NCBI GenBank assembly: GCA_014896355.1
Contig: JADBKO010000005.1
Location: forward strand, 34,286 to 98,285
From: Bacillota bacterium
Lineage (GTDB): Bacteria; Bacillota; UBA5301; Bu52
Direction: 5' to 3'
Length of the DNA: 64,000 bases
The notes beneath the pieces were generated by a model that was given only the letters and a program-made list of their open reading frames with translations, made no database searches and had not been told where the DNA came from. A program made the translations under genes and the position numbers. Positions within the stretch are counted from its first letter, which is position 1; the number at the start of each line of letters is the position of its first letter. This document shows, piece after piece, positions 14,587 through 38,204 of this stretch.

Positions 14587-14622
14587 ATGCATGTGTCTGA
14601 TGTGTGTGATGCCTGTTTTCGG

Positions 14623-14665
14623 AGGATAGATCCTGCTTGTGTATAGCACAGGGAGGATATGTCCA
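14623..14665 (+). promoter_or_regulatory. Operator pair A: two 12-bp imperfect palindromes (AGGATAGATCCT and AGGATATGTCCA), 31 bp centre-to-centre, upstream of the CE7 esterase gene
   Basis: Near-identical architecture and sequence to pair B at 16871-16913 (GGAGGATA..TCCT ... GGAGGATAT.TCCACC ... GCGAAT). The intervening TTGTGT/TTTGTT could be a -35. Confidence 0.45.
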
Positions 14666-14761
14666 CCCAAGAGCGAATAGAGCTTAACAAGATTGCGGGT
14701 TTCAGTGCAAACGTGTACTTGGGAGCACCCTACACCCTGAAAAAAAGGGGGCCTTGCTTTA

Positions 14762-15745
14762 GTGGCTGGAATAGATATGGGGCCGGAACAGCTGCGGCAG
14801 TATAAACCGGCGCTGACGCGCGAGCCCGACTTTGACCAGTTCTGGGCGGACGCCCTGGAGGAGTCGAACCGGGAGCCGCTGGCGGCGGAGCTGACCCCGC
14901 TGCCGTACAGCGTGCCCGGCCCGCGCATCTACCGCCTATCCCTGGCTGGGCTGGGCAGAGTCCGGCTGGCCGGATATTATCTGGTTCCGCCGGGGACCGG
15001 CCCCTTTCCAGCCCTGGTCTTCTATCACGGCTACGGGATGGACAAAGGCGCCATTGCCGATTACTTGATGTGGCTGTGCCAGGGCTATGTCGTGGCAGTG
15101 CTGGATGTGCGCGGCCAGGGCGAAAGCCAGGATTCCGGAACCAGCCCAGTGGGCGGCGGAAATGTGGCGGGCTATATGGCCAAGGGGATCGAGAGCCCAG
15201 CCAGCTACTACTATCGCGGGGTCTATGTGGACACTGTGCGCCTGGTGCGTTTTGTCCAGCAACGCCCGGAGGTGGATCCCGTCCGAATCGGCGTGACCGG
15301 CGGCAGCCAGGGCGGCGGTTTGGCTTTGGTGGCAGCGGCCCTGAGCGGCGCAGCGGCTGTGGCCGTGAGCGAGGAGCCATTTCTGTGTCATTTTCAGCGT
15401 GCCATCGACATCGCCTTGCAGGGGCCGTACCTGGAACTCCAGGAGTACCTGCGCCGCCACCCTGAGCGTACGGAAGCCACCCTGCGGACCCTGAGCTATT
15501 TCGACGTGATGAACTTGGCGGAGCGGGTTCAGTGTCCGGTGCGGATGTGCGTGGGTCAGATGGACGACGTCTGCCCTCCGTCCACCGCTGCTGCCGCTTT
15601 TAACCACTTGGGCGGCGCCGGGGAGAACGTCCTGGATATCTATCCCTTCAACCGGCACGACGTGTGGGGTTACCCCGCCAGCAAGGAGGCAAACATCGTT
15701 TTTCTGCAGCGCCATCTGCATCCACAGGGAGCCTGGGCGCGCTGA
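14762..15745 (+). CDS. Acetyl xylan esterase / cephalosporin-C deacetylase (CE7, Axe1 family)
   Basis: N-terminal FDL-like MAGIDMGPEQLRQYKP, GxSQGG nucleophile (GGSQGGGLAL) and a C-terminal H in FNRHDV, consistent with the CE7 catalytic triad. Confidence 0.85.
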   Translation: MAGIDMGPEQLRQYKPALTREPDFDQFWADALEESNREPLAAELTPLPYSVPGPRIYRLSLAGLGRVRLAGYYLVPPGTGPFPALVFYHGYGMDKGAIADYLMWLCQGYVVAVLDVRGQGESQDSGTSPVGGGNVAGYMAKGIESPASYYYRGVYVDTVRLVRFVQQRPEVDPVRIGVTGGSQGGGLALVAAALSGAAAVAVSEEPFLCHFQRAIDIALQGPYLELQEYLRRHPERTEATLRTLSYFDVMNLAERVQCPVRMCVGQMDDVCPPSTAAAAFNHLGGAGENVLDIYPFNRHDVWGYPASKEANIVFLQRHLHPQGAWAR

Positions 15746-15787
15746 AGTACGGCGCAATGTCACATGACTGCGGAGGGGGCGTTTGGC

Positions 15788-16762
15788 ATGCCTCGAGGGC
15801 GTATATCGACTGAGGACATCCTTGCGGAGGCGGCGGAGAAAACCGTCCGCGCCCGGCCGCTGCTGGCCCGCATCCCTAGCCATTTGGCTGGTTTGACGGG
15901 TTCCGAGCGCAAAGTGGCGCAGGTGGTGATTCGCCAGCCGCAGCAGGTGGTCTATAGTTCCGTTACGGAGTTGGCTGCTCTGGCGGAAGTCGGGGAGACT
16001 ACAGTCTTGCGGTTTGCTCGCAAGCTCGGCTACCGGAACTACCAGGATTTCAAGATGGACCTGGCGCGGGATGTCTTTTCTGAACCCTCCGCCAACGGGA
16101 TCGGCATGTTGGCGGGCGAGTCTGCGGCTGGGGGCCCGGCGCATCAAGGCGGCGAGGCGGTTCCGGGGCAGGGGGGCGCGGCGGAAGCCGGAACGGTGGA
16201 TGTCCTGGCCAAGGCCACGGAACGGAATCAGCGGGTCATCATGGATACTTTCCGCGTCCTGGACCGCGCTGCTTTCAACCGCGCAGTACAGATCCTGGCC
16301 GGTGCCCACCATATCCATTTCTATGGGGTGGGGCATTCCGGGATCACCGCGCACGATGCGCATTACCGGTTTCTCCGTTTGGGCTTCCCGGTGAGCTCCT
16401 TTTCCGACCCTCACTTTCAGACCATGGCCGCGGCCACTCTGGCCGAGGGGGACGCCGCTGTGGGGCTTTCCGTCTCCGGCAGCACGAAAGACACGGTGGA
16501 ATGCCTCCAGATTGCCAGGCGGCATGGAGCCAAGACCATCGCCATCACCGGCTATGCCCAGGCTCCCATTGTGCGGGAAGCGGACGTGGTATTGCTGACC
16601 GCCACGCGGGAGTCGCCCCTGGAATCGGGATCCTTTACCTCCAAGATCGGCCAGCTGCACATGCTGGACCTTCTTTGCGTCGCCCTGGTGGGGCTGCACC
16701 CGGATGCAGTTCGCCGCCAGCAAGAGAACGTGGCAGAGGCCATTTCGTCCAAGCTTTTCTAA
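15788..16762 (+). CDS. RpiR/MurR-family transcriptional regulator (HTH_6 + SIS domain)
   Basis: N-terminal HTH (LTGSERKVAQVV...SVTELAALAEVGETTVLRFARKLGY) and a C-terminal SIS domain (FYGVGHSG). ATG 15788 has a GGAGGGGG SD; an alternative ATG lies at 15764. Confidence 0.85.
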   Translation: MPRGRISTEDILAEAAEKTVRARPLLARIPSHLAGLTGSERKVAQVVIRQPQQVVYSSVTELAALAEVGETTVLRFARKLGYRNYQDFKMDLARDVFSEPSANGIGMLAGESAAGGPAHQGGEAVPGQGGAAEAGTVDVLAKATERNQRVIMDTFRVLDRAAFNRAVQILAGAHHIHFYGVGHSGITAHDAHYRFLRLGFPVSSFSDPHFQTMAAATLAEGDAAVGLSVSGSTKDTVECLQIARRHGAKTIAITGYAQAPIVREADVVLLTATRESPLESGSFTSKIGQLHMLDLLCVALVGLHPDAVRRQQENVAEAISSKLF

Positions 16763-17000: not shown

Positions 17001-17849
17001 TTGGGCGGCGGGAAAACACAGCAGACGCTGAAACTCTCCCTTGCGAAATCCTCTGCCGCCGCGGCAGCTTCGTCCCCGGGACAGGGCTCGCCTTTCCCGG
17101 CCGCTCACGTCCGGGTGGCGCCGGGACTGGAGCCGCTTAGGGGCGGGCTCATCGTGTCTTGCCAGGCACTGCCGGACGAGCCCCTGCATAGTTCGGCAAC
17201 CATGGCGCAGATGGCCGTGGCGGCTTGGCAAGGCGGAGCCGCAGGCATCCGGGCCAATTCCGCGGTGGACATCGCGGCCATCCGCCAGGTGATGCCTTTG
17301 CCGGTCATCGGGATCGTGAAGCGCGACTATCCGGATTCGCCGGTGTACATTACTCCCACCTTCGCTGAGGCGCGGGAAGTGGTGGAATCCGGAGCGCACA
17401 TCCTGGCCGTGGATGCCACGCAGCGGCCCCGGCCGGGAGGATTGTCGCTGGCTGACTTGGTGGCCCAGATCCGCCGGCACTTTGCCATCCCTCTGATGGC
17501 GGACGTGAGTTCCGTGAGCGAGGGAATCGCCGCGGCGCAATTAGGGTTTGATGTGGTATCCACCACGCTGGTGGGCTATGCCGGCGATCACGAACCACTC
17601 GGTTACGAGCCGGATTTTGCCCTGATCCGGGAGATGGTGGAAGCGGTCACCGGCCGCTACGGCACTCCGGTCATCGCCGAGGGCCACATCTGGGAGCCGG
17701 TGCAGGCCCGGCGGTGCCTGGAACTGGGCGCCTATGCCGTGGTGGTGGGAAGCGCCATCACGCGGCCGCAATTGATCACGGAGCGGTTTGTCCGGGAGAT
17801 GCAGGGAAAGGCGGGAGCCGGGCGCCCCTCTGAGTGTCGCGAGGCGTGA
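17001..17849 (+). CDS. nanE: N-acylmannosamine-6-phosphate 2-epimerase
   Basis: LEPLRGGLIVSCQALPDEPLH...GIRANS, typical NanE. The first ~38 codons from the TTG at 17001 are low-complexity, so the true start may be near GTG 17115. Confidence 0.8.
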   Translation: MGGGKTQQTLKLSLAKSSAAAAASSPGQGSPFPAAHVRVAPGLEPLRGGLIVSCQALPDEPLHSSATMAQMAVAAWQGGAAGIRANSAVDIAAIRQVMPLPVIGIVKRDYPDSPVYITPTFAEAREVVESGAHILAVDATQRPRPGGLSLADLVAQIRRHFAIPLMADVSSVSEGIAAAQLGFDVVSTTLVGYAGDHEPLGYEPDFALIREMVEAVTGRYGTPVIAEGHIWEPVQARRCLELGAYAVVVGSAITRPQLITERFVREMQGKAGAGRPSECREA

Positions 17850-17959: not shown

Positions 17960-18970
17960 ATGGGACGCTGTGCTGTGGGGCTGGATATCGGTGGCACGAA
18001 GATCGCTGTTGGAGTGGTGACGTTGGACGGACAGATCTTCTGGCGCAGCCGCCGCGAGACCCCGGTGCGGCTGGGAGCCGAGGCTGTGGCACAGGCTGTC
18101 TGTTCGGCCGCGGAAGAGGCGGTACGGGCCGCCGGCGCTGCCGGCCTGCAGCCTGAGGCCGTGGGAATCGCCACAGGCGGCCAGGTGGACCGGCTCCAGG
18201 GCAGAGTGGTCAGTTCCACCCGCGTCTTGCCGGGATGGGAAGCCATTGACCTGCGCACCCGCGTGGCAGAGGCCGTGGGGCTGCCGGTGCAGATCGACAA
18301 CGACGCCAAGGCCATGGCCCGGGCGGAGCTGGCCTGGGGTGCCGCCCGCGGAGCGCAGACCGCTGTGTTCTTGACGCTGGGCACAGGAGTGGGCGGTGCG
18401 CTGGCGGTGAACGGTCGCGTGGTCGACGGCCAGCGGGGTTTTGCCGGGCATCTTGGGCATATCCCGGTCACTTCGGTCACTTCGGACGGCCCGGTCTGCA
18501 GCTGCGGAAACCGCGGCTGTTTGGAAGCCTACGCCTCCGGCACGGCCATCGCCGCCCTGGCCCGGGCCCGTCTGGCAACCGAACGGCCCCCGGCGGCGGC
18601 GACACCGGAGCCGGCCCCGGACGCCAGCGCGGTTTTCGCCGCGGCGGCGCAGGGGGCCCCCTGGGCCCGTTGGGCGCTGGATCAGGCCCTGGCAGCCCTG
18701 GGCGCGGCTTTGGCCGGACTGGTCCATGCCCTCAATCCCGAAGTGATCGTGATCGGCGGCGGGCTCAGTAGCCAGGGCGAGCCGTGGCGCCGGTCCATAG
18801 AAGACGCCGTCTTTCGCCGCGTCATGCCCGCCTTCCGGAGCGGGCTCTCCATCCGGCTGGCGGCGCTGGGCGGCGACGCAGGCTTGGCCGGGGCGGCACT
18901 GCTGGGAGCTGGGTGGGATCGGGTGGATGCACCGGATCCCGGGAATTCCGGAAAGGAGTGGCGCGGATGA
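17960..18970 (+). CDS. ROK-family sugar kinase (N-acetylmannosamine / N-acetylglucosamine kinase-like)
   Basis: GLDIGGTKIAVGVV ATP motif, and a ROK signature with the zinc motif CSCGNRGCLE. Confidence 0.85.
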   Translation: MGRCAVGLDIGGTKIAVGVVTLDGQIFWRSRRETPVRLGAEAVAQAVCSAAEEAVRAAGAAGLQPEAVGIATGGQVDRLQGRVVSSTRVLPGWEAIDLRTRVAEAVGLPVQIDNDAKAMARAELAWGAARGAQTAVFLTLGTGVGGALAVNGRVVDGQRGFAGHLGHIPVTSVTSDGPVCSCGNRGCLEAYASGTAIAALARARLATERPPAAATPEPAPDASAVFAAAAQGAPWARWALDQALAALGAALAGLVHALNPEVIVIGGGLSSQGEPWRRSIEDAVFRRVMPAFRSGLSIRLAALGGDAGLAGAALLGAGWDRVDAPDPGNSGKEWRG

Positions 18971-20517
18971 AGCCACTGGAACAGGCCGCAGATGGCGGCA
19001 CCTATCCCGTCATCGTGGTGGGCGGCGGGACTGCCGGAGCGATGGCGGCTGTGGCTGCCGCCCGCGGTGGAGCCCGAACTCTACTGATCGAGGAGAACGG
19101 CTATCTCGGCGGGACAGCCACCGGAGGGTTGGTGACGCCGTTCATGTCCAACCGGATCCCGGCGCGATCGTTGCCAGCGGCGGAGCGAGCTGCGCAGAGA
19201 GATGCCGGCGGCTCCGGCCCCTCCCCGGCGGATGACGGCGCGGTCAACCTCAATCGCGGCCTTACCGACGAGCTGAAGGCCAGGTTGGCGGCGATCCAGG
19301 CCGGGGCCGCCACACCCGACAACGATGGCTGGTTCGACCCGGAGGGAATGAAGTTCGTATTGGAGGACATGGCCCTGGAGGCCGGTGTCCAGCTCCTCTA
19401 TTACACGCGCTTTGTGGATGTTTTGACCGCTCCTGCGGCCGCAGAGGCGGGGACCGCCTCCGGAGCGGGGGAGCAGAGGCGTCGTATCACCGGGATCGTG
19501 GCGCACACCCCCGCGGGGTTCGTGCGATTCGGGGCGCAAGTGGTCATCGACGCCAGCGGTGATGCGGACGTGGCCGTGGCTGCCGGTGTTCCTTGGCGTT
19601 GCGGAGGCCCATCCGGGCAGAGACAGGCCCTCTCCGTGCGCTTTATCGCCGGCGGAGTGGATCTAGAGGCGCTGGCCCGGTTCCTGCGAGAATTGGGCGA
19701 TCCTGCTTGGCCTGATGGCTTTCTGGAAATGGCCATGGTCTGGGGGCGCGGCTTCAAACTGGAGCCCCTCTTCCGCCGGGCCGTGGAGGCCGGTGACCTA
19801 CTAGAATCTGATGGGGATTACTTCCAATGTTTTACGCTGCCGGGCCGCCCCGGACAGCTGGCTTTCAACTGCCCCCGCATCGCCACGCAGGTGGATGGCA
19901 CCAACCCCTGGGATCTGACCCACGCCCAGATCGAGGGGCGTCAGGCCATCCGGCGGTTGATGAGCTTTCTGCGCAAGTATCTGCCCGGATGCCAGCAGGC
20001 GCATGTCCTCGAGGTGGCACCCATGGTCGGGGTGCGGGAGAGCCGGCGGATTGTGGGCGATTATGTGCTGACCCTGCAGGATGTGCTGCAGGCTCGTAAG
20101 TTTTCCGATGCAGTGCTGCGCAACCGGTACCCCGTTGACATCCATTGGGTCCAGAATTCGCCAGCGGGGAAAGCCTCGGAGACTGTGGACTCGGCGCTGC
20201 AGACTGCGGGCCGGGTCCCGGAGCCGGAGGAGCCGGAAGTGTTCCACCACCCGGGTTTTCTCCCCGAAGGCGCGTACCACGAGGTACCGTATCGCTGCTT
20301 GCTGCCCCGGGGCATCGAAGGCCTGCTGGTGACAGGGCGGTGCATTTCCGCCACTTTTGCGGCCCAGTCCGCCATTCGTATTCAGCCGAACTGCCATTCC
20401 CTGGGGCAGGCGGCCGGGACAGCGGCCGCGTTGGCCGTAGAGGCCGGCATCACACCGCGGCAAGTGGACGGCGTCCATTTGCGGGAAGTTTTACGGTCAC
20501 AGGGGGCCTGTCTATGA
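18967..20517 (+). CDS. FAD-dependent oxidoreductase (pfam12831-like), copy 1
   Basis: YPVIVVGGGTAGAMAAVAAARGGARTLLIEENGYLGG dinucleotide-binding motif. ATGA overlap with the ROK gene and an AAAGGAG SD. Paralog of 33268-34770. Confidence 0.8.
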   Translation: MKPLEQAADGGTYPVIVVGGGTAGAMAAVAAARGGARTLLIEENGYLGGTATGGLVTPFMSNRIPARSLPAAERAAQRDAGGSGPSPADDGAVNLNRGLTDELKARLAAIQAGAATPDNDGWFDPEGMKFVLEDMALEAGVQLLYYTRFVDVLTAPAAAEAGTASGAGEQRRRITGIVAHTPAGFVRFGAQVVIDASGDADVAVAAGVPWRCGGPSGQRQALSVRFIAGGVDLEALARFLRELGDPAWPDGFLEMAMVWGRGFKLEPLFRRAVEAGDLLESDGDYFQCFTLPGRPGQLAFNCPRIATQVDGTNPWDLTHAQIEGRQAIRRLMSFLRKYLPGCQQAHVLEVAPMVGVRESRRIVGDYVLTLQDVLQARKFSDAVLRNRYPVDIHWVQNSPAGKASETVDSALQTAGRVPEPEEPEVFHHPGFLPEGAYHEVPYRCLLPRGIEGLLVTGRCISATFAAQSAIRIQPNCHSLGQAAGTAAALAVEAGITPRQVDGVHLREVLRSQGACL

Positions 20518-22076
20518 CGGCAGAAATGGTGGTGGCGGAAGCGGGAAAACGGTTCCCGCGCCGCAACATTCTCTGGATCGATGCCACGGCCAATCTGCCC
20601 ACCACTCATCATCGGGACGGTATGGCGGCGCTTTTGGACCGGGCTGCAACAGCCGGCTTTACGACTGTGGTGGTGGATGTCAAGCCGCCCAGCGGCGAAG
20701 TTTTATACGCCAGCCGGCTGGCCCCTCGTCTGGAACAGTGGGAGCCCGGAGTTGAGCTTCCCCGCGGCTATGACCTGCTGGCCGTGGCTGTGGAAGAGGC
20801 GCGGAGCCGTGGACTGGAGGTCCTGGCGAGCCTGAATGTTTTTTCGGAGGGCTATCGGCAGCATGGGCGTCTGCGCGGAGCCCTCGTGGCAGATCCTGCC
20901 CGGGCGGGCTGGGAATGCGTGGCTTACTCTGCTGCCGGTTTGCGGGACGCGGCGGATGCAGGGCTGCCCGGGGCCGTGGACGGCGGTACGCAAGGCGGAA
21001 TCCAGCCGGCAATGGCGCCCGCGTTGGCTCCCATGACCCGGTTCCACGGCAAGGACTGGGCTTTCGTGAATCCTGCCTTGCCCGAAGTCCAGGGGTACGA
21101 GCTGGCGTTGCTGGAGGAAGTGGCCAGGGGCTATCCGGTGGATGGCGTGATTCTGGATCGGGCGCGCTATACCGGACTGGATACGGATTTCAGCCCTGCC
21201 AGCCATGCCGCGTTTTGCCGCTTTGTGGGGACGCACGCGAAGCGCTGGCCGGAAGACGTTTATGAGATTGTGCCGGCACCTCATGCTTTCCACGCCGGGG
21301 CGGGGGACGGCCAAGGGAAGCCGGAACGTGAAACGGAGGAGGGGGCGCTGCTACGCACCTCGGAGGGCGTTTGGATCCGCCCTGGGCCTTTGTTCGGCCC
21401 CTGGCTTCTTTGGCGGGCTCAGGTGATCCATGATTTCGTGGCTGCCGCCCGCCGGCGGGTCAAGGCTGCCCGGGCCGACGCCTTGTTCGGCATCTATGCG
21501 GGCTCTTGGTTCCCCTCCTACTACGAGTTGGGCGTGAACTGGGCCAGCAGCCGTTTCCGCCGGGATGCGGTGGCTTCGCCCGGTCCTGTGCCGCCGGGCT
21601 ACGAGGCCACGGGCTACGCGGAGGAGCTGGACCTGTTCCTATCTGGCAACTACTACCCGGAGGTTTGGGAGGAAGAGGTCACCCAAGGCCTGCCTGAGAC
21701 GGCGCAGCGGGAGCCCGGACAGCCGCCTCAGCGCACCTGGTGGTATTCTGTGGCGGGCGCGGCCCGGATGGTGCGCCACGTGACCGGGCATGTGCGGCCA
21801 ACCTACGGGAGCCTTTATCTGGTGCAGTATGAGGATCATCCTGAGCGCTTGGGCGAGGCCGTCCGGGCTTGCCAGGAAGGCAGCGATGGCGTCATGATCT
21901 TCGATTCCAGCCACCTGGATCGGTTGCAATGGTGGGAGGCTTTAGGTGCCGCGATCCGCGCCGGTCTGGGGGCCGGAGCGCCAGGCGGCAGCGGTGAGGG
22001 TCGGGACGGAGGCTCCCAGGGCAGCCATACGGGCGGTACAGCCCAAGGAGGCGCAGAATATGCCCCAGCGAGATGA
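20514..22076 (+). CDS. Putative glycoside-hydrolase-like protein (GHL10/DUF4015-like TIM barrel) with a Gly-rich C-terminal tail
   Basis: The N-terminal pattern ILWIDATANL...AGFTTVVVDVKPPSGEV resembles the YngK/GHL10 family. ATGA overlap with the upstream FAD gene. The track ORF is extended upstream to 20145 in the same frame. Confidence 0.65.
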   Translation: MTAEMVVAEAGKRFPRRNILWIDATANLPTTHHRDGMAALLDRAATAGFTTVVVDVKPPSGEVLYASRLAPRLEQWEPGVELPRGYDLLAVAVEEARSRGLEVLASLNVFSEGYRQHGRLRGALVADPARAGWECVAYSAAGLRDAADAGLPGAVDGGTQGGIQPAMAPALAPMTRFHGKDWAFVNPALPEVQGYELALLEEVARGYPVDGVILDRARYTGLDTDFSPASHAAFCRFVGTHAKRWPEDVYEIVPAPHAFHAGAGDGQGKPERETEEGALLRTSEGVWIRPGPLFGPWLLWRAQVIHDFVAAARRRVKAARADALFGIYAGSWFPSYYELGVNWASSRFRRDAVASPGPVPPGYEATGYAEELDLFLSGNYYPEVWEEEVTQGLPETAQREPGQPPQRTWWYSVAGAARMVRHVTGHVRPTYGSLYLVQYEDHPERLGEAVRACQEGSDGVMIFDSSHLDRLQWWEALGAAIRAGLGAGAPGGSGEGRDGGSQGSHTGGTAQGGAEYAPAR

Positions 22077-24018: not shown

Positions 24019-24021
24019 AGT

Positions 24022-29420: not shown

Positions 29421-29480
29421 GCCGCAGCCTATCGCCAGGCGCAGCCGTTCGTGCCGGGCATAGGCTGCGGCTTTCTTATT
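29421..29480 (+). terminator. Rho-independent terminator closing the first carbohydrate operon
   Basis: GCCGCAGCCTAT...ATAGGCTGCGGC 12-bp stem followed by TTTCTTATT. Confidence 0.6.
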
Positions 29481-29490
29481 GTCAGGAACC

Positions 29491-29700
29491 GTTGCGTTTC
29501 TGTGCGCAACATGCGCAACGAATTCAGTCTACTTTACGGGCCCAGGAACGCGAGCTTAAATGGCGAAGAAGGAATTACTTCGAGACTGAAGAATATATAC
29601 TGCCGAAGAGACCGGTGGGCGAAGAGTGTTGCTCTGTTGCGCAATAGGTGCATTTGCTTACCCGGGCATGCTTGGGTAGTGCAACAGCCGCGCAACGCAT
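29491..29700 (+). promoter_or_regulatory. Cluster of TTGCGCAA-type palindromic repeats (candidate LacI-family operators) upstream of the LacI regulator gene
   Basis: GTTGCG-N8-CGCAAC at 29491-29510, ATGCGCAAC at 29511-29519, the perfect palindrome TTGCGCAA at 29637-29644, and GCAACAGCCGCGCAACG at 29683-29698. Confidence 0.3.
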
Positions 29701-29729
29701 ACGGCTGGTCTAGGGTTGGAGGTCTGAAG

Positions 29730-30815: not shown

Positions 30816-30869
30816 AGACCAGTTGGCTGCTGCGGCCGAAGTGCCACGGCGGGAAGGTGAGATGGGCCT

Positions 30870-32543
30870 TTGCATATCGGCTTTGTTCCCTTAGACGACC
30901 GGCCATGTACAAGCCGGTTCGCTCCGGAGATTGCTGGGTTGGTGGGGGAGCGCCTGTTTCTTCCACCTCGGGAACTACTGGGGCATTTCCAAACTCCTGG
31001 AGACCGTGATGGCGTGATGGAGTGGCTGCATGATGTTTCGCCGCAGCTGGATGCATTGATTGTCAGCTGCGACATGCTGGCGTTCGGCGGGCTGGTTGCT
31101 TCACGGACGCCGGCGGTTCCTCTCGAAGAAGCGCTGGAACGGCTCAGGTGGCTCCACGATCTGAAGCGTGCGAACAGGGGGCTGACAATCCTAGGGTGGA
31201 GTGTGATCACACGGTTGTCCATCACTGCCCAGGACCGTCGCTCGGCACGCTACTGGCAGTACCTCCACGAGTACAACCAACTTCCGGGCGCCCGCACCGC
31301 TGGATGCTTGGACTCGGCCCCGGAGAAAGGCTTGGATTCTGTTGAACCGCTCGGCACCAGCGCGGCAAGCGCCCGCCTTCGGCACCTGGAACAGATAATT
31401 CCGGCAACCATTCTTCAGGCCTACCGGCAAGTCCGGCGGCGCAACCATGCAGTGAATCGGCTCGCCGTCGAATTGGCGGCGGACGGCACTTTCGATTACC
31501 TCTGTCTGTGCCAGGAAGACGCGGCGGTCAATGGCCCCCATAAAGCGGAGCAGGCGGCCCTGCTGAAGTTGGCTGAGGAGACGGGGGCGAGGCCGCGGGT
31601 AAACGTTTATCCGGGCGCGGACGAAGCAGGGATGGTTTTGTTGACCCGGGCTTTGCTTGGAGCCGCTGGCCGAACTCCTCAGGCTCTGTTTTTGTGTCTG
31701 CCTACGGCAGGCGCCGGCATAGTGCCGGAATATGAAGACCGCCCCTTGCGGGAAAACCTGCTCGCTCAGGCTGCCGCCGCCGGGATGAGGGGCAGGATCG
31801 TCTGTTCGGACCAGCTTCAGCGGGGCCTGCCGGAAGAAAGCCTGCTTTTCTGGGTCAACTGTCCGGATCCACCCTGCCTGGGCCCTCCCAGCTCATGCGC
31901 TCCACCCGTAGATCTCCAAACGCAGCGGGAGCAGGAATTCGAAACGCAGCTGGATTTGGTCCGAGGTGTGCTGGGGCGAAGCAGGTACGCGCTGCGTGGC
32001 TTCGGACCAGCCTCCGTTGTGGACGTGCGGGTTGCCAACGGGGGCGAGGATGCTTTCGTACGACGGCTCCTGCAAAAGGGGCTCGCGGGCCAGCTGGCGG
32101 CCTACGCCGGCTGGAATACGGCGGGGAATTCCATTGGCACCGCTCTGGCCATGGCCGGAATTGCGTGGCTGGGGGTCCGGGGCCGGCGCATCCCCGGCCG
32201 GCCTTCTGAATGGGATGGAGCCCTCCTGCATCGGCAGTTGCTGTGGCAACGCTTTACAGACGACTGGCTGTACCAGACAGTGGTGCGCCCGCGCCTTATG
32301 CGGTTCGTGGAGGAGCTCCATGACGATCCTTACCACCTGTCCAGTCGGGGCGCCACTCTGGTCGAAGAAAGATTGGCACGAGAATTGATTCCGTTAAGCC
32401 AGCAATGGTACCGTGTGTTTGCCGGAGAGACGTCGGCTGGTGGGAATGAGGCCGTCTCCGGCGTTCTGCCTCAAATCTGTTGTCGCCTGCCTTGGGGCCG
32501 CCTTTTCGAAGTGGAACTCAGCGTGCGCCTGGCTAGCGGTTAG
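30870..32543 (+). CDS. DUF4127-family protein, copy 2
   Basis: HIGFVPLDDRPCTSRF. Collinear similarity with copy 1 throughout (LAFGGL, NHA(L/V)N, YPGADE, LAAYAGWNTAGN, LFEV). TTG start with a GAAGGTGA SD. Confidence 0.7.
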   Translation: MHIGFVPLDDRPCTSRFAPEIAGLVGERLFLPPRELLGHFQTPGDRDGVMEWLHDVSPQLDALIVSCDMLAFGGLVASRTPAVPLEEALERLRWLHDLKRANRGLTILGWSVITRLSITAQDRRSARYWQYLHEYNQLPGARTAGCLDSAPEKGLDSVEPLGTSAASARLRHLEQIIPATILQAYRQVRRRNHAVNRLAVELAADGTFDYLCLCQEDAAVNGPHKAEQAALLKLAEETGARPRVNVYPGADEAGMVLLTRALLGAAGRTPQALFLCLPTAGAGIVPEYEDRPLRENLLAQAAAAGMRGRIVCSDQLQRGLPEESLLFWVNCPDPPCLGPPSSCAPPVDLQTQREQEFETQLDLVRGVLGRSRYALRGFGPASVVDVRVANGGEDAFVRRLLQKGLAGQLAAYAGWNTAGNSIGTALAMAGIAWLGVRGRRIPGRPSEWDGALLHRQLLWQRFTDDWLYQTVVRPRLMRFVEELHDDPYHLSSRGATLVEERLARELIPLSQQWYRVFAGETSAGGNEAVSGVLPQICCRLPWGRLFEVELSVRLASG

Positions 32544-32553
32544 GGGGATAATC

Positions 32554-33255
32554 ATGGGATCCTACGCTACCGTTTTTTCGCAAAAGGCTTTTGTTCTCAT
32601 TGCTTCGTTGCCTGCCAACGATCCAATCATTGCAAAGGAGGCTTTGAACGCGGGTGCGGATGTGCTGAAGGTGCACATCAACCTACACCACCGTGCCAGC
32701 GGCCAGCAGTTCGGCTCTCTCCACGAAGAGCAGAGCCGTCTGGTGGAGATCCTGCGCCTGGCCAGGGCCAAGGGGGTTCCCGTCGGGATCGTGCCTGGCG
32801 CCGAACCTGTTGTAAACCTTGGCCTGCTGACAGAGCTGCGGGACATGGGATTTTCCTTCATATCCGCTTATGCGCAACATCTTGGGCCCGAGGCTCTAAC
32901 CCTGACTGGAATCGACCGCATGATTGCCCCGGATTATACCTATTCCATACCGGAGGTCACGGCGCTGGGAACTTTGGGATTCGAGGTGCTGGAGGCTTCC
33001 GTGATTCCCCCGGACCGGTACGGGGCTCCCTTGAGCCTTCGTGATCTGGCTAGATACCATGCCATTGCTACGGCTGTCCCCATGCCCGTCGTGGTTCCCA
33101 CGCAGCTGCGGATCCAGCCGGAGGAAGTTTCGTTTCTGCGACAGGCCGGGGTCAGAGGCGTAATGATTGGGGCTGTGGTGACGGGCAGGGACGCGGCGGG
33201 GATGGCCCGGGCTACCCAGGCATTCCGCCGTGCCATCGACGGGTCCAGGCTGTGA
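32554..33255 (+). CDS. NanE-like TIM-barrel protein (putative sugar-phosphate epimerase, distant paralog of nanE)
   Basis: VLIASLPANDPIIAKEALNAGADVLKVHINL parallels the NanE stretch LIVSCQALPDEPLH..MAQMAVAAWQGGAAGIRANS. ATG 32554 has a GGGGGA SD, immediately after the DUF4127 stop. Confidence 0.45.
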   Translation: MGSYATVFSQKAFVLIASLPANDPIIAKEALNAGADVLKVHINLHHRASGQQFGSLHEEQSRLVEILRLARAKGVPVGIVPGAEPVVNLGLLTELRDMGFSFISAYAQHLGPEALTLTGIDRMIAPDYTYSIPEVTALGTLGFEVLEASVIPPDRYGAPLSLRDLARYHAIATAVPMPVVVPTQLRIQPEEVSFLRQAGVRGVMIGAVVTGRDAAGMARATQAFRRAIDGSRL

Positions 33256-33267
33256 CGGAGGAAGATC

Positions 33268-34770
33268 ATGGGCCGAGATATAGCTCCAGTTGCGGGTCAA
33301 TCAGATCATCCAGCCCCATCGAGCGAGGCTTTGCATCCGGACGTCCTTGTGGTAGGCGGAGGCCCAGCGGGCCTGGCTGCCGCTGTAGCCGCCGCCCGCC
33401 AGGGATGTTCCACGATGCTGCTGGAGCGTTATGGATTTGTGGGCGGGACTCCGGTGGCGGCTCTGGTGGGTCCCATGATGACTTTTCATGCAGGTAGCCG
33501 CGCTGTGGTGGGCGGCATCGGCCAGGAAATCGTTGACAAGCTGGTACAGATGGAGGCTTCCCCTGGTCACGTGCCGGACATGATCGGCTTTGTCCCCTCC
33601 TTGACGCCCTTTGACCCGGAAGCGTTAAAAGATGTTGCACTAGATCTCGTACTGGGGTCCGGGGTGCAGCTTTGCCTGCATTGTTGTGCTGCCTCGGTGC
33701 AGGTGGACCGCGGCCGGATCGAATCTGTGCGGGCCTTTGGGCGCTGGGGCGAACTGGAGATTCATCCTGCCTTCGTGGTGGACGCCACCGGCGACGCCGA
33801 CATTGCGGCCCGTGGAGGCTTCTCCTTTGAGATCGGACGCCCAGGCGACGGTCTTGTTCAGCCAGCAACTTTGATCCTTCGCGTGGGTGGAGTGGACCTC
33901 GCGGAGCTGAGGCAGTATGTGGCGGATCATCCGGACGACTTCGTGCTGGGTTGTGCACCTGGCGAGATCATGGAATTTCCATGGCTGTCCGTGGCGGGCT
34001 TTTTCTCCATTGTCAAGAAAGCCCGCGAGCGGGGGGAATTCGGTGTTCCCAGGGACAGGGTGCTGGCATTTCAGGGTATCCACCCTGGGGAGATGCTGAT
34101 CAACATGACGCGGGTCCACGTCCGCCCTGGCTCCCTGCAGGAGCTAACCCGCGCGGAAGTGGAGGGCCGGCGGCAGAGCCAGGAGGTCCTGCGTTTTTTG
34201 CGGCGGTACGTGCCCGGATTCCGGCAAGCGTATCTCATGCAGTCCGGCGTTCAAGTGGGGTTCCGCGAGTCGCGGAGAATTGTGGGGCACTACGTACTCA
34301 CCGCCCGGGATGTGGTGCAGGGAAGCCGCCTGCCCGATGCCGTGGCCATGGGAGGGTTCCCCATCGACATCCATTCGCCGGCGGGTAAGGGCCTGGGGGC
34401 CTACCAGCCGGCGGCACCGCTGGGCTATGAGATTCCCCTGCGGGCCCTGATCCCGGCAGGGGCGAAGAACTTACTGGTGGCGGGGCGATGCATCTCCAGC
34501 ACCCATGAGGCCCATGCCTCAGTGCGGGCGACGCCGACCTGCTTCGCCACAGGCCAGGCGGCAGGGACCGCAGCGGCTGTGGCCGCGAAGGAAGGGATCC
34601 TGGACCTCTCAAGCGTTGCTGACCTGCAGGCAGTACAGGTTGGCACAGCGGCGGCAACGGGAGGAGCGAAGCTGATCCGTCTTGTTCAGGAAGCCTTGCT
34701 TTCCGCCGGCGCCATCTTTAACAGCAGTCTAGTGAGAAAGGAGGACGCGCATATGCGTGCGTCTCGCTAG
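33268..34770 (+). CDS. FAD-dependent oxidoreductase (pfam12831-like), copy 2
   Basis: DVLVVGGGPAGLAAAVAAARQGCSTMLLERYGFVGG. Collinear with copy 1 (VVDATGDADIA, GFRESRRIVG, C-terminal GRCIS..H..A..R..P.C...GQAAGTAAA). Confidence 0.8.
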   Translation: MGRDIAPVAGQSDHPAPSSEALHPDVLVVGGGPAGLAAAVAAARQGCSTMLLERYGFVGGTPVAALVGPMMTFHAGSRAVVGGIGQEIVDKLVQMEASPGHVPDMIGFVPSLTPFDPEALKDVALDLVLGSGVQLCLHCCAASVQVDRGRIESVRAFGRWGELEIHPAFVVDATGDADIAARGGFSFEIGRPGDGLVQPATLILRVGGVDLAELRQYVADHPDDFVLGCAPGEIMEFPWLSVAGFFSIVKKARERGEFGVPRDRVLAFQGIHPGEMLINMTRVHVRPGSLQELTRAEVEGRRQSQEVLRFLRRYVPGFRQAYLMQSGVQVGFRESRRIVGHYVLTARDVVQGSRLPDAVAMGGFPIDIHSPAGKGLGAYQPAAPLGYEIPLRALIPAGAKNLLVAGRCISSTHEAHASVRATPTCFATGQAAGTAAAVAAKEGILDLSSVADLQAVQVGTAAATGGAKLIRLVQEALLSAGAIFNSSLVRKEDAHMRASR

Positions 34771-34855
34771 AGCTCTGGTAACCCTATTGCGGTCCGCGTT
34801 CAGCGCTACGTAGAGATCAACCGGGAAAACTCATTTGATGAGGGAGGCTTTATCC

Positions 34856-36178
34856 ATGTTTCGAAGGATGTTCAATCTAGAACGTGCACAGTCCCGGCTG
34901 GCTACGCCAGGCGGGGGCCTGCGGATGGCCTTGATAATACTCGCCGTAGCCGCCTGTCTTTCTGCCGTTACGCCTTCTGCCTGGGCGGCTTCCCGGACCA
35001 CGGTGACTTTTTGGATGGCTGGCAATGACCAGAAATTCATGGATACCGTCAACACCCAGCTTCTCCCTGCCTTTGAGAAGAAGTATCCCAAAATCGATCT
35101 CCAGATCACGTTCGTGCCGTGGGAAACTCTCTCTGTGAAGCTGGCAACGGCATTCGCCGGAGGCATGGCGCCGGACGTCTTTATGCACGGGGCAGCCGCC
35201 ACTGCTGGCTTTGCCGCAACGGGCCGCGTGGAGCCTTTGGATTCCTTGATCGCCAAGATGCCGGACGCCAGGGACTTCGGCAGCACCCTGGAGCAAGGTA
35301 ACTACTACGGAAAGCATTACATGATCCCCGTCTTCGGCGCCGGCCGGCTTCTGATGTATCGAGCTGACGAATTCAAGGAAGCGGGCCTCAATCCCGATGA
35401 GCCTCCGGCCACATGGGAGGAGTTCCGGAATGCAGCGATAAAACTCGCGATCCGCCGGGGAAATCAGATTGTTCGCGAAGGTATTGATCTCCCCACATCC
35501 GGCATCGATGCCCAGCAGATCTTTGCCTGCTTCCTGTGGCAGGCAGGAGGCAGCTTCTTCAACCGTGATTACACGCGGGTGACATTCAACGATGCCCACG
35601 GCGTGGAGGCCCTACAGTTTCTGGCGAATCTGATCCAAAAGGATAAGGTCGCAGATACTAGCATTAATCTGGGGCAGGGTAACGTGCCGCCTATCGCCAC
35701 CAACCAGGTTGCCATGCTTTTCGCCGTGCCGGGAGATGTGGCCCAAGTGAAAACCTACGCTCCCGGAATTTATAAGGAGATCCGGGTCGCACCGCCGCTA
35801 AAGAACAAAGAACAATGGACTTTCTACAGCTTCTCAGGGATGTTCATGTCCAAGACCAGCAAACATAAAGAAGACGCCTGGAAAGTCATGGAGTTCTTCT
35901 CCAGCCCCGAAGCTTTGGAGAAGATCAACGCATCCATGGGCACCCTTCCGCCGCGCCGTTCGCTGGCCAAGGCTCCGGCCTTCGCATCCGATCCGAACAT
36001 CCGGGCCTTTGTGGAAAGCATGCAATACGCAAGGGGAAACCCAAACATCGCCCAGTGGGTGCAGATCCGAGACATCCTGTCCCGGTACCTGGAGCAGGCG
36101 TTGTATGGCCGAATGACGCCGAAAGCTGCACTGGACCAGGCGGCCAAAGAGGCAGACGCCCTGCTGAGCAACCGCTAA
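34856..36178 (+). CDS. ABC transporter substrate-binding protein (CUT1 family)
   Basis: Signal peptide and SBP_bac_1-like sequence. ATG 34856 has a GAGGGAGG SD; the track ORF starts at 34835. Confidence 0.85.
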   Translation: MFRRMFNLERAQSRLATPGGGLRMALIILAVAACLSAVTPSAWAASRTTVTFWMAGNDQKFMDTVNTQLLPAFEKKYPKIDLQITFVPWETLSVKLATAFAGGMAPDVFMHGAAATAGFAATGRVEPLDSLIAKMPDARDFGSTLEQGNYYGKHYMIPVFGAGRLLMYRADEFKEAGLNPDEPPATWEEFRNAAIKLAIRRGNQIVREGIDLPTSGIDAQQIFACFLWQAGGSFFNRDYTRVTFNDAHGVEALQFLANLIQKDKVADTSINLGQGNVPPIATNQVAMLFAVPGDVAQVKTYAPGIYKEIRVAPPLKNKEQWTFYSFSGMFMSKTSKHKEDAWKVMEFFSSPEALEKINASMGTLPPRRSLAKAPAFASDPNIRAFVESMQYARGNPNIAQWVQIRDILSRYLEQALYGRMTPKAALDQAAKEADALLSNR

Positions 36179-36332
36179 GGGCTGCGCCTCAGGTAAAAGC
36201 CAGTAGTGAGAGTGGGCAAAATGCGGGAGAGGCGGGGCCAGGGGCGTGCGGGCCCCTACCTCTCCTACACGCCGCTCCGGTGCCTCCGAAGTCCCCTGTG
36301 GTTCCAGATCGACGCAGCTGGAGGGTTATTGT

Positions 36333-37229
36333 ATGTCATCATTATCTGCTTATTGGCGCAACAGGACACGCCGTGAACAGATGCTCACAGGGTACGCTTT
36401 TGTGGCACCCATTGTCCTATACACCCTAGTCACCGGGTTCATCCCCGTTGTAAGCTCGCTGTATCTGAGCTTCACAAACTACAACATGATGACGCCCGCG
36501 CGTTGGATTGGCCTCCAGAACTACGTTCAGGTCCTCTTCCACGACTCGCTCTTTTGGAGAGCCATGCTCAATACTGCCCAGTACTCTCTGGAGGTCCTTC
36601 CCCTCAATGTTCTTTTTTCCTTGTGCTTGGCCTTGTTGGTGAACCAAAAGCTGCGGGGAATTACAATCTTCCGTACGCTTTACTACCTGCCCGTGGTCAC
36701 CTCCAGCATTGCTGTGAGTATGATCTGGCTCTGGTTATACAACAAGAACTCAGGGCTGATCAACTTGTTTCTGGGGCTTTTCGGGTTGGGGCCTGTCGAC
36801 TGGCTGGGGACGCCGGGCCTGGCGCTGCATTCGCTCGTCTTGATGCGGGTCTGGAAAGGGATCGGCTGGAACATGGTGATCTATCTGGCGGGCCTCCAGG
36901 GGATTCCGAAATACCTGTACGAAGCCGCGGACATCGACGGGGCCTCCGGCTGGAAGAAATTCTCCCAAGTTACCTGGCCTTCGTTGCGTCCGGTGACCTA
37001 CTATATCGTGGTGATGGGGCTTATCAGCACCTTCCAAACCTTTGCCGAAATCTACGCCATGACCAACGGGGGGCCGCTAGGATCCACCACAACCGTGGCT
37101 TATCTGATCTATCAGCGTGCCTTCGGAGCCTTTGACATGGGCAATGCATCGGCTGTGTCTTTCATTCTGTTCGTGGTGATTTTCGGGCTGTCGCTGGTGA
37201 ACGTGAAGTACTTCCAGCCGCAAGACTAA
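36333..37229 (+). CDS. ABC sugar transporter permease (MalF-like)
   Basis: EAA loop EAADIDGASGWKKFSQVTWP. ATG 36333 has a GGAGGG SD. Confidence 0.85.
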   Translation: MSSLSAYWRNRTRREQMLTGYAFVAPIVLYTLVTGFIPVVSSLYLSFTNYNMMTPARWIGLQNYVQVLFHDSLFWRAMLNTAQYSLEVLPLNVLFSLCLALLVNQKLRGITIFRTLYYLPVVTSSIAVSMIWLWLYNKNSGLINLFLGLFGLGPVDWLGTPGLALHSLVLMRVWKGIGWNMVIYLAGLQGIPKYLYEAADIDGASGWKKFSQVTWPSLRPVTYYIVVMGLISTFQTFAEIYAMTNGGPLGSTTTVAYLIYQRAFGAFDMGNASAVSFILFVVIFGLSLVNVKYFQPQD

Positions 37230-38156
37230 TGGTTACTGGGGGCGAAAATGTGGCACAGACAGTGGTCTACGGACGGCTCGCCGGGCGCGAATTCCGGTTT
37301 GCCGTTCGCAAGCTGGGCACTTACCTGGTTTTGACATGTGTGGCGGTGGTGATGGCGGCGCCGTTCCTCTGGATGCTGCTCAGTTCGTTCAAACCAGACG
37401 CCGAACTCTTTGCCTATCCGCCGGTATGGCTGCCCAGGCACGTGACACTTCAACACTATATCGACGCCTTCTCGCATTCCTTGTTCGCTCGCTATTTCTT
37501 CAATAGCCTGGTGGTGACGGGATTGGCGACTGTGGCAAACCTGTTCTTTTGTGCCCTGGCCGGGTATGCCTTCGCCCGCCTGGACTTTCCCGGGCGAGAT
37601 GTGATCTTTTACGCTCTACTGGGGACCATGATGATCCCGGGTTATGTTACGCTGATCCCCCTGTTCATCATCGTCAAGAGCATTCCTTTCGCCGGGGGGA
37701 ATAACTGGTTAGGGCAGGGCGGGACGGGTTGGGTGAACACCTTGCCGGGCCTCGCGTTTCCTTACCTGATGAGTGTTTTCGGGGTTTTTCTTGTCCGCCA
37801 GTTCTTTCGGACGATACCTACGGATCTTAAACGACGCAGCACGTATTGATGGTGCCTCGGAGTTTACGATTTTCTGGCGTATCTACGTACCGCTGAGCCG
37901 CCCGGCGCTGATGACTCTGGGTATTTTCAGCTTCACCTCCGTGTGGGATGATTTTCTTTGGCCACTGGTCATCACGAATACAGAAGCCATGCGCACAGTC
38001 CAACTGGGGCTTCAGACGTTCCAGAGCCAGTTCTTTACAAATTGGGGAGGGCTGATGGCTGCCACATTGGTGGTGACGGTGCCAACTTTGTTGATTTTCA
38101 TATTCGGCCAGAAGTACTTCATTGAGGGAATTGCTACCGGCGGCATCAAGGGCTAA
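37229..38156 (+). pseudogene. ABC sugar transporter permease (MalG-like) broken by a +1 frameshift near 37829-37831
   Basis: Track ORFs 37229-37849 and 37773-38156 are two halves of one permease. The EAA loop reads ...FFRTIPTDLK|RRSTY* in frame 1 and continues ...LNDAARIDGASEF in the other frame. An extra A in the run cttAAAcgac explains it. Confidence 0.7.
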
Positions 38157-38204
38157 CGAAGAAGTACCAGCCTTCGGCCGTACTGTGCCCCGGAGGTCCC
38201 GGGG

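Follow-up and report, generated by a model that had tools for sequence, protein, structure and literature searches.

Two adjacent loci in a stretch of DNA from a Bacillota bacterium (contig JADBKO010000005.1, positions 34,286 to 98,285; this whole stretch of 64,000 nt is called the window below) can be classified with high confidence as uncharacterised operons for the uptake and catabolism of an amino-sugar glycan. Each combines a protein of the family DUF4127 (PF13552) with a flavoprotein of the family PF12831 and an ATP-binding cassette (ABC) importer of the CUT1 type; locus 1 adds the N-acetylmannosamine-6-phosphate (ManNAc-6-P) 2-epimerase NanE, and locus 2 a protein that we call TIM2. More specifically, and with a probability of roughly 45%, we read them as two anciently diverged operons that import a di- or oligosaccharide of β-linked N-acetylhexosamine (HexNAc), its likely source being bacterial wall glycans, and turn it into metabolites of the N-acetylglucosamine-6-phosphate (GlcNAc-6-P) type; DUF4127 is proposed to be a new family of cytoplasmic glycoside-cleaving enzymes. 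The first-pass annotation of the window had likewise suggested an uncharacterised amino-sugar glycan pathway, and the domain calls and co-conservation described below bear out this general reading and make a ManNAc-type intermediate likely.

The core genes of the loci are:

17001-17849, + strand: NanE, ManNAc-6-P 2-epimerase; true start probably downstream of 17001 (PF04131, 2e-63)
18967-20517, + strand: PF12831 oxidoreductase dependent on flavin adenine dinucleotide (FAD), copy 1; its start overlaps the stop of the ROK gene by 4 bp (PF12831, 4e-109)
22060-24018, + strand: DUF4127 copy 1, NanE/ROK-associated subfamily; start uncertain, 21946-22114 (PF13552, 9e-141)
30870-32543, + strand: DUF4127 copy 2, TIM2-associated subfamily (PF13552, 2.5e-113)
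32554-33255, + strand: TIM2, a Pfam-unannotated (β/α)8-barrel family, read as phosphate-binding, in NanE's place beside DUF4127
33268-34770, + strand: PF12831 FAD-dependent oxidoreductase copy 2 (PF12831, 1e-116)

The domain calls on which the pathway had been proposed passed profile searches. Against thresholds of 27 bits for both PF13552 and PF12831, the DUF4127 copies reach 470.2 bits (21946-24015) and 379.7 bits (30870-32540, profile positions 1-488 of 489) and the flavoproteins 366 and 391 bits. The DUF4127 motifs PLDxRP, GGLxxSR, GADE and WNTAGN, invariant in an alignment of 34 sequences, are present, and the two flavoproteins show N-terminal GxGxxG motifs for predicted dinucleotide binding, VVGGGTAGAMAA and VVGGGPAGLAAA. 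The next relative of DUF4127 is only 46% identical. NanE exceeds the curated cut-offs of PF04131 (213 bits; cut-off 27) and of the NCBIfam model PRK01130 (292 bits; cut-off 189).

All four core components had been described as pairwise paralogous between the loci. BLASTP supports this for DUF4127 (33% identity over the full length, 3e-67), the flavoproteins (33%, 2e-49), the solute-binding proteins SBP1 and SBP2 (25%, 7e-27) and the permeases (42% and 8e-71 for 1a and 2a; 33% and 7e-62 for 1b and the repaired 2b), but not for NanE and TIM2, which are kin only at the superfamily level. A recent tandem duplication of one locus is ruled out by this low identity (25-42%) and by the placement of the DUF4127 copies in different old clades with different partners: in a neighbour-joining tree copy 1 falls into a NanE/ROK-linked clade and copy 2 among loci of the TIM2/LacI type. 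Judged from these sequences, the window holds two old variants of the DUF4127 system side by side, not a duplicated locus.

Conservation of the gene partnership

Counted with one genome per species, at least 542 species encode DUF4127. Eighty loci of Bacillota, Armatimonadota, Chloroflexota, Deinococcota and other groups were retrieved, and their neighbouring genes were identified first by comparing six-frame open reading frames (ORFs) to the window proteins and then by clustering de novo; these loci and those from metagenomes are designated by L-numbers (L001 etc.). TIM2 lies beside DUF4127 in 45 of the 80 loci and NanE in nine, never together with TIM2. Where at least 3 kb were available on both sides of DUF4127, one or the other was present in 44 of 57 loci, always on the same strand. 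The flavoprotein was found in 36 of the 80, a solute-binding protein (SBP) with two permeases in about 35, an AraC-type response regulator in 23, a ROK protein in 13-15, a GFO/IDH/MocA protein in 13, a protein of glycoside hydrolase (GH) family 3 in six and a GHL10 protein in five. The reciprocal test started from TIM2 in metagenomes: of 40 loci with sufficient flank, 32 had DUF4127 next to TIM2 and 24 had the flavoprotein. The pairing of DUF4127 with PF12831 is kept across phyla. Of the shared core that the first-pass annotation had assumed, DUF4127 with either NanE or TIM2 stands as invariant, but the flavoprotein and the importer are frequent accessories.

These partnerships come in several architectures. 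Loci built like locus 1 carry NanE, RpiR, ROK, an ABC importer, DUF4127, GHL10 and the flavoprotein, and those built like locus 2 carry LacI, DUF4127, TIM2, the flavoprotein, sometimes GH3, and then ABC genes. In Bacilli the order is a two-component system, SBP, TIM2, two permeases, flavoprotein and DUF4127, in one case beside a giant LysM+GH18 protein. Chloroflexi loci consist of GntR/UTRA, ABC importer, NanE, DUF4127 and ROK, some with additional GFO, AP_endonuc_2 and AAC(3)-like acetyltransferase genes. Armatimonadota/Zipacnadia loci combine an iPGM-like phosphomutase and a protein of about 442 aa (no Pfam match, signal peptide-like N-terminus) with TIM2 and DUF4127. The commonest form in gut and other metagenomes comprises a ROK repressor, a DctM/GntP-like transporter, a Hydantoinase_A-like ATPase, TIM2, DUF4127, the flavoprotein and a protein of about 200 aa with an HExxH motif, genes that are joined by 4-bp overlaps. 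Further recurring neighbours are GH3/NagZ, GH18+LysM, GntR/UTRA regulators and ROK repressors. RpiR genes flank DUF4127 in L023, L067, L073, L074, L164, L165 and L168, LacI genes precede it in L001, L004, L016, L018 and L024, and GHL10 homologues adjoin it in L013, L017, L034, L067 and L074.

Some of these neighbours merit a separate description. The HExxH protein (HEFYH, HECFH, HEFFH or HERAH; no Pfam match) follows the flavoprotein in about 25 loci of the order transporter, HydA, TIM2, DUF4127, flavoprotein (examples are L086:9520-10107, L113:9579-10220 and L023:14441-15082; also L082), and may be a zinc amidase or peptidase of the pathway. In L085-L163, for instance in L086:2354-9523 from a human gut metagenome, the DctM/GntP-like transporter and a stand-alone Hydantoinase_A-like ATPase (about 730 aa, no HyuB partner) precede TIM2, DUF4127 and the flavoprotein; this ATPase is probably not simply the kinase, because it coexists with a BadF-type sugar kinase in L082. 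A family of about 440-490 aa without Pfam match lies beside TIM2 and DUF4127 in 15 loci of Armatimonadota, Evansella and Clostridium (e.g. L022:2157-3482, L023:5597-7063); its L022 member, the only one translated, has a signal peptide-like N-terminal segment. In the Chloroflexi loci L037 (12750-15402) and L049 (16628-19278) a second importer is followed by GFO/IDH/MocA, an AP_endonuc_2 TIM barrel and an AAC(3)-like N-acetyltransferase, which hints at an oxidative or aminosugar-reacetylating side branch. One apparently conserved neighbour cluster of 205 aa (UNK205) was rejected as an out-of-frame artefact in high-GC DNA: it is of low complexity, rich in Arg, Ala, Gly and Pro, and has no Pfam match.

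Plasmid cassettes and a possible role of DUF4127

What DUF4127 may do is indicated by small plasmid cassettes from Enterococcus faecalis (LR962301) and Carnobacterium (pCAR50). They consist of RpiR, nanE (315 bits in E. faecalis), a Cof-type (HAD) phosphatase, DUF4127 and a IIC component of the lactose/cellobiose family of the phosphotransferase system (PTS; TIGR00410, 379 bits); no kinase, no known glycosidase or phospho-glycosidase and no flavoprotein was found in them. Transporters of this family import β-glycosides and phosphorylate the non-reducing sugar, and to our knowledge operons of this type always include a phospho-glycosidase (chb, cel, lac, murQP-mupG). Because the cassettes contain no known glycosidase, DUF4127 is the only candidate for opening the glycoside, a slot that is filled by GH1, GH4 or MupG in comparable operons. 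This points to a cytoplasmic (phospho)glycoside-cleaving enzyme that would free ManNAc or ManNAc-6-P, and the presence of NanE implies that ManNAc-6-P is the sugar released in the cassettes. Nearly all ABC-type NanE loci carry a ROK kinase, as expected if free ManNAc is released there. The core reaction cannot depend on the flavoprotein, which the minimal cassettes lack and which is thus an accessory.

The cassettes are related to locus 1: their DUF4127 proteins are closest to window copy 1 (261-286 bits), and window NanE is 50-53% identical to their NanE proteins. A plasmid of Priestia megaterium carries CE7 esterase, DUF4127, ROK, ManA, PTS, NanE and RpiR genes and repeats the CE7 association of the window, its esterase beside DUF4127 being 31% identical to that of locus 1. 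On a plasmid of Deinococcus sp. KNUC1210 a module of SBP1, GH20, two permeases, flavoprotein and DUF4127 lies beside nagZ; the window proteins are 65% (SBP), 54/44% (GH20) and 47% (flavoprotein copy 1) identical to it. The G+C content of the window is about 65%, but it is 56-62% over the SBP, GH20 and permease genes and locus 2 (24000-38000) against 64-70% in the adjacent DNA. The low G+C content and the 47-65% identity to the Deinococcus module suggest that horizontal acquisition took place and that locus 1 was put together as a mosaic.

The DUF4127 sequence itself offers few clues. A sequence search of the PDB gave no match, and no whole-protein similarity to an established glycoside hydrolase catalytic fold was found. 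The terms 'DUF4127', 'PF13552' and 'IPR025394' occur in no paper of the literature library searched, in agreement with the earlier statement that the family lacks an assigned function; the same had been said of GHL10, which is only partly correct, since that family has the characterised members Cwp19, DigH and DogH. PF12831 (FAD_oxidored) appears in the literature searched only in flavoproteome lists and in one unrelated study of mushroom gene expression. The flavoprotein matches solved structures over its FAD-binding N-terminus only, and more extended similarities in the PDB are restricted to fumarate-reductase-type flavoenzymes. A supposed link of PF12831 to a 'xanthan lyase' specific for pyruvated mannose was discarded, as XalA is a PL8 enzyme.

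TIM2 is not a member of the NanE family

The ORF at 32554-33255 had been regarded as a NanE-like paralogue, and this part of the first-pass annotation has to be given up. No Pfam or NCBIfam model matches TIM2, the NanE profile included; BLASTP against window NanE yields E = 0.037, and hhalign aligns the two profiles with 74.5% probability over 184 columns. In this alignment VIGIVK of NanE faces VGIVPG of TIM2, with Pro/Gly at the position of the lysine that follows the third β-strand (IGI-x-K motif), which we take to be catalytic as in Clostridium perfringens NanE; TIM2 lacks this conserved lysine. A PDB sequence search gave no significant match, only marginal ones to ThiE and OMPDC, and NanE structures did not emerge as the closest structural relatives. 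Profile scans, BLASTP, hhalign and the structural comparison together rule out membership in the NanE family.

TIM2 can nevertheless be assigned with confidence to the TIM barrels, and it resembles NanE, ThiE and OMPDC at the superfamily level. It has invariant residues of its own (K39, H41, H46 and E147) and a C-terminal IGAVVTG motif, which we read as phosphate-binding from its counterparts in this barrel superfamily. It is 100% identical to a protein with an IMW99_ locus tag. None of its homologues among the matches listed (n=120) carries a Pfam domain, and the family is small: 1.84 billion representatives yield 338 clusters at 50% identity (E <= 1e-10). By these comparisons TIM2 is a separate, unannotated family that replaces NanE, and it presumably isomerises or epimerises a related sugar phosphate. 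Fusion proteins were considered as a Rosetta-stone clue to its function and rejected, as the partners are only uncharacterised N-terminal regions or ClpX-type zinc fingers.

Other genes of the two loci

All 18 genes of both loci are on the + strand, as is every plausible gene between 14.7 and 38.2 kb, and the ORF listing and Pfam scans agree with the gene order and coordinates first assigned to them. Besides the core genes given above, the loci contain:

14762-15745, + strand: CE7 acetyl esterase (AXE1 family), cytoplasmic; GGSQGG serine motif in the translation (PF05448, 1e-91, 307 bits)
15764-16762, + strand: RpiR/MurR-family regulator with HTH_6 and a phosphosugar-sensing SIS domain (PF01418, 7e-20; PF01380, 9e-22)
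17960-18970, + strand: ROK-family sugar kinase lacking a DNA-binding domain; CxCGxxGC zinc motif present (PF00480, 2e-64)
20514-22076, + strand: GHL10-like TIM-barrel glycosidase with C-terminal DUF4985, cytoplasmic (PF02638, 7e-17; PF16373, 1.6e-28)
24022-25284, + strand: SBP1, CUT1 solute-binding protein, ChiE/MsBP-like (SBP_bac_1, 2e-43)
25372-27642, + strand: secreted GH20 enzyme, predicted to be of the disaccharide-releasing (lacto-N-biosidase-like) type (GH20b, 1.6e-16; GH20, 5e-9)
27639-28505, + strand: ABC permease 1a (BPD_transp_1, 8e-15)
28502-29356, + strand: ABC permease 1b (BPD_transp_1, 6e-14)
29730-30815, + strand: LacI-family repressor, start uncertain (LacI HTH, 3e-8; Peripla_BP_3, 2e-26)
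34835-36178, + strand: SBP2, CUT1 solute-binding protein (SBP_bac_1, 8e-39; best PDB match 5ci5, 1e-42)
36246-37229, + strand: ABC permease 2a (BPD_transp_1, 6e-17)
37229-38156, + strand: ABC permease 2b, split by a +1 frameshift with an extra A at about 37829-37831

The genes are densely packed, with 4-bp overlaps at the junctions ROK/flavoprotein copy 1, flavoprotein copy 1/GHL10, GH20/permease 1a and permease 1a/1b. The ROK gene missed the NanK, NagK and GlcK equivalog cut-offs alike, scoring 126 bits with NF047821 (cut-off 450), 137 with PRK05082 (283) and 186 with ROK_glcA_fam (260). In the GHL10 protein both domains pass their gathering thresholds (GHL10 61.9 bits, cut-off 27.9; DUF4985 99.8 bits, cut-off 39.3), and the GHL10 domain of Cwp19 (2e-9) is its only PDB sequence match.

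The GH20 domains are likewise above threshold (GH20b 61.6 bits, cut-off 26.1; GH20 36.4 bits, cut-off 22.3), and the translation shows a signal peptide and the catalytic Asp-Glu pair in HIGHDE. In the PDB search the best solved relatives are all GH20 enzymes that release disaccharides: TrdeGH20 (6e-17), TrpyGH20 and LnbB-type lacto-N-biosidases (PMC11776370). The nearest solved sequences are LNBase/LacNAcase enzymes (9fyl, 9fyn, 8hvb, 4h04), and ordinary hexosaminidases reach about 1e-6 at best.

The frameshift that had been noticed in permease 2b proved to be a single extra A: a tblastn search with permease 1b moves from frame 1 to frame 2 at an AAA run (about 37829-37831), and removal of one A restores ...TDLNDAARIDGASEF... 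and a permease of 308 aa with an EAA loop. The split gene could be a genuine pseudogene or a homopolymer error of the metagenome-assembled genome.

A proposed pathway and its alternatives

The route that we infer, including the substrate, the activity of DUF4127, the reaction of TIM2 and the part of the flavoprotein, would run as follows. In locus 1 the secreted GH20 would cut X-β-GlcNAc units from a polymer, and the CUT1 importer (SBP1 and two permeases) would take up the disaccharides, from which cytoplasmic DUF4127 would split off a ManNAc-type sugar. The CE7 esterase would strip O-acetyl groups, and the GHL10-DUF4985 glycosidase and the flavoprotein may handle variant or substituted substrates. 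The ROK kinase would then form ManNAc-6-P and NanE convert it to GlcNAc-6-P, while RpiR would sense a sugar phosphate. Locus 2, controlled by LacI, would be a sister system that handles a related sugar, TIM2 taking over from NanE. The substrate of DUF4127 would be the free disaccharide where the importer is of the ABC type, and the 6-phospho-disaccharide in the PTS-linked cassettes.

The first-pass annotation had put forward a ManNAc-β-GlcNAc unit as substrate. This idea has gained support because the GH20 relatives release disaccharides, because ROK kinases accompany NanE in ABC-type loci and because the β-glycoside PTS cassettes hold NanE and DUF4127 with neither a kinase nor a known glycosidase; the substrate may instead derive from peptidoglycan, being of the N-acetylmuramic acid (MurNAc) type, or be anionic in another way. 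A bolder version, in which DUF4127 is the missing (6-phospho-)β-N-acetylmannosaminidase that recycles ManNAc-β-1,4-GlcNAc of teichoic-acid linkage units and secondary wall polymers, TIM2 a new sugar-phosphate epimerase/isomerase and the flavoprotein an enzyme of a new kind that takes acidic ether or ketal groups (lactyl or pyruvyl) off such sugars by flavin chemistry, is speculative and rather unlikely.

Several observations weigh against the proposed pathway. The combination of a DctM/GntP-like transporter, an ATPase and an HExxH protein suggests that an anionic monosaccharide or an amide-linked substrate fits the commonest metagenomic cassette better than a neutral disaccharide does. Many DUF4127 genes of Armatimonadota are solitary, amid housekeeping genes, and most TIM2 loci have no kinase nearby. 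The invariant residues of DUF4127 are mainly Arg, Asp and Glu, which would suit phosphotransfer, phosphorolysis or removal of an anionic group equally well. Simple glycoside hydrolysis would leave the flavoprotein without an evident task. Of the characterised GHL10 proteins, Cwp19 and DigH cleave peptidoglycan glycans. Finally, MsBP, the best PDB match of SBP1 (6wpm, 8e-51, full length), has a positively charged cleft, prefers anionic sugars and is encoded beside mreBCD; of its ligand residues only Arg125 could be mapped (a Lys in SBP1), the other numbering being ambiguous, and the comparison of ligand residues was not used.

On the one hand, DUF4127 could be no glycosidase at all and perform another step on a monomeric modified amino sugar, such as removal of an anionic substituent (4,6-pyruvyl ketal, phosphate), phosphotransfer or a mutase reaction, or phosphorolysis, after which NanE or TIM2 would finish the route and GH20, GH3 and GHL10 would do all glycosidic cleavage. 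We regard this as rather unlikely. In its favour, clusters of invariant Arg, Asp and Glu residues occupy the C-terminal edges of CheY/flavodoxin-like β-sheets, and it agrees with the solitary genes, with the secondary anion-type transporters of the gut cassette, with iPGM-like phosphomutases in seven Armatimonadota/Zipacnadia loci and with the Cof phosphatases of the PTS cassettes. Moreover, the DUF4127 carriers Bacillota, Deinococcota, Chloroflexota and Armatimonadota overlap the taxa known to have pyruvylated ManNAc wall polymers, but the pyruvyl-ketal idea finds no direct support in our data. The cellobiose-family PTS cassettes, however, hold no other candidate to open the imported β-glycoside, CUT1 systems typically take up oligosaccharides, and no cofactor- or nucleotide-binding motif was recognised in DUF4127.

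Alternatively, the loci might salvage peptidoglycan sugars of the MurNAc type while bypassing the MurQ etherase. GHL10 would cleave MurNAc-GlcNAc fragments or muropeptides, the flavoprotein would run the MurB reaction backwards, turning the 3-O-lactyl ether into an enolpyruvyl ether by desaturation, and DUF4127 and/or the TIM barrel would remove it to yield (Man/Glc)NAc-6-P. C2 deprotonation is the first step common to NanE-type enzymes and MurQ, and by inference could serve here too. The GHL10 precedents Cwp19 and DigH and the sugar preference and genomic setting of MsBP would find a place in such a route, as would the MurR/RpiR-type regulators, the neighbouring GH18+LysM, SLT_2, NagZ and M20 peptidase genes with the conserved HExxH protein, the transporter suggestive of a sugar acid, and a flavoprotein whose extended matches are α,β-dehydrogenases of the fumarate-reductase type. 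Yet a bona fide NanE far above its cut-off and the ROK kinases point to ManNAc-6-P, not MurNAc-6-P, and the flavoprotein cannot be an essential ether-removing step, given that it is missing from the minimal PTS cassettes and the Chloroflexi loci. A literature search on MurNAc, etherase/MurQ and FAD-dependent enzymes found no flavin-dependent MurNAc etherase, and the abstract and outline of a 2026 mycobacterial preprint on MurNAc name no relevant enzyme. We consider MurNAc salvage improbable.

Least probable, and in our view very unlikely, is an oxidative, non-hydrolytic cleavage in which the flavoprotein (or GFO/IDH/MocA) oxidises next to the glycosidic bond and the TIM barrel and/or DUF4127 carry out the elimination, as in 3-keto-glycoside, levoglucosan and C-glycoside pathways. 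In its favour, most of the 13 of 80 loci with GFO_IDH_MocA are devoid of the flavoprotein, and in Chloroflexi GFO is followed by an AP_endonuc_2 TIM barrel, the pair by which such pathways are recognised; in many loci the flavoprotein gene is translationally coupled to that of DUF4127 or TIM2, and β-mannosaminide bonds are closed to the substrate-assisted mechanism of GH20. But the minimal cassettes and many other loci lack any oxidoreductase, GFO genes are very common in these phyla and sometimes lie several kilobases away, and the literature searched holds no characterised glycoside oxidase in PF12831.

Surroundings of the loci

Upstream of the loci lie genes for rhamnose-nucleotide synthesis, PhoU/Na-Pi and a GldG-like ABC accessory protein, and downstream HD-GYP, a KaiC-like ATPase, G6PD and TreT. 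None of them is related to the loci, which therefore form a discrete island. In the immediate flanks we looked for nagA/nagB, nanA, murQ, csaB and SLH genes and found none.

The genes directly upstream of locus 1 (9557-14442) encode, in this order, an ABC ATPase, a GldG-like ABC_transp_aux/DUF7088 protein and a DUF4340 protein, and resemble a gliding/ABC-accessory-type module with no relation to the loci. Two HD-GYP-type (HD_5) proteins, one of them with a GAF-like region, are encoded at 38205-40043 (-) and 45849-47336 (+) on either side of the KaiC-like ATPase gene (40685-42418); this stretch may be a cyclic-di-GMP signalling neighbourhood. A third FAD-dependent protein (54568-56325; FAD-depend_C with a Pyr_redox_2-type N-terminus), about 16 kb downstream, is unrelated to PF12831 and to the loci. 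Three ORFs of 355, 724 and 363 aa with high G+C at third codon positions (56436-60736) had no Pfam match at 1e-5.

Significance and comparison with known systems

DUF4127, TIM2 and this branch of PF12831 are close partners in at least five phyla; carriers include Clostridia of the human gut and E. faecalis plasmids. This partnership probably marks an undescribed step in the recycling of bacterial cell-wall sugars. An enzyme family that cleaves β-ManNAc linkages is not known to us, and little is known of what happens after turnover to teichoic-acid linkage units, secondary wall polymers and many fragments of peptidoglycan. If the proposed pathway is true, cell-wall recycling and necromass turnover would gain a new family of glycoside-cleaving enzymes and another of sugar-phosphate isomerases, a prospect that we consider realistic, and possibly new flavin chemistry. 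With four to seven genes and clear candidate substrates they are compact test systems.

Among known systems, the Gram-positive nan clusters (NanE, ROK-type NanK, RpiR-type NanR and a SAT-type ABC importer) share with locus 1 NanE, a ROK kinase, RpiR, a CUT1-type importer, an acetyl esterase and, by the proposed route, GlcNAc-6-P as end product. They possess NanA, however, in whose place locus 1 has DUF4127, GHL10 and the flavoprotein, and locus 2 has TIM2 for NanE. Neither a NanA lyase (DHDPS family) nor a sialidase was present in the two loci (19 translated ORFs) or in the 20 ORFs scanned in their flanks, and a canonical nan cluster with DHDPS-family NanA was likewise absent among the conserved neighbours in the 80 loci.

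The murQ-murP-mupG-murR operon of Staphylococcus aureus and chbBCARFG of Escherichia coli are laid out like the Enterococcus and Carnobacterium cassettes, with RpiR, a PTS IIC for a β-linked HexNAc disaccharide, an opener of the phospho-disaccharide and a converter to GlcNAc-6-P. DUF4127 is unrelated in sequence and fold to the openers MupG (GH170) and ChbF (GH4), NanE stands in MurQ's place, and the window loci have ABC importers and a kinase instead of the PTS. In the galacto-N-biose/lacto-N-biose pathways (GH20 lacto-N-biosidase, ABC import, cytoplasmic processing) the same logic of cutting outside, importing and finishing inside is found, and the window GH20 gene lies between the SBP and permease genes; the window loci differ in having no GH112 phosphorylase or Leloir-type enzyme. 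Oxidative glycoside-cleavage pathways of the 3-keto-glycoside type, in which GFO/IDH/MocA or FAD oxidases work with xylose-isomerase-like TIM-barrel lyases, have an oxidoreductase and a TIM barrel beside sugar importers in common with our loci, and some DUF4127 loci carry the GFO and AP_endonuc_2 pair too. But glycoside oxidases are not known from PF12831, TIM2 belongs to the ribulose-phosphate-binding type of barrel, not to AP_endonuc_2, and the oxidoreductase is dispensable in many DUF4127 loci. The window loci function like nan, murQP-mupG/chb and GH20-initiated import systems but do so without NanA, MurQ, MupG, GH1 or GH4; they are a familiar type of system, a sugar-utilisation operon, that relies on three families without known function.

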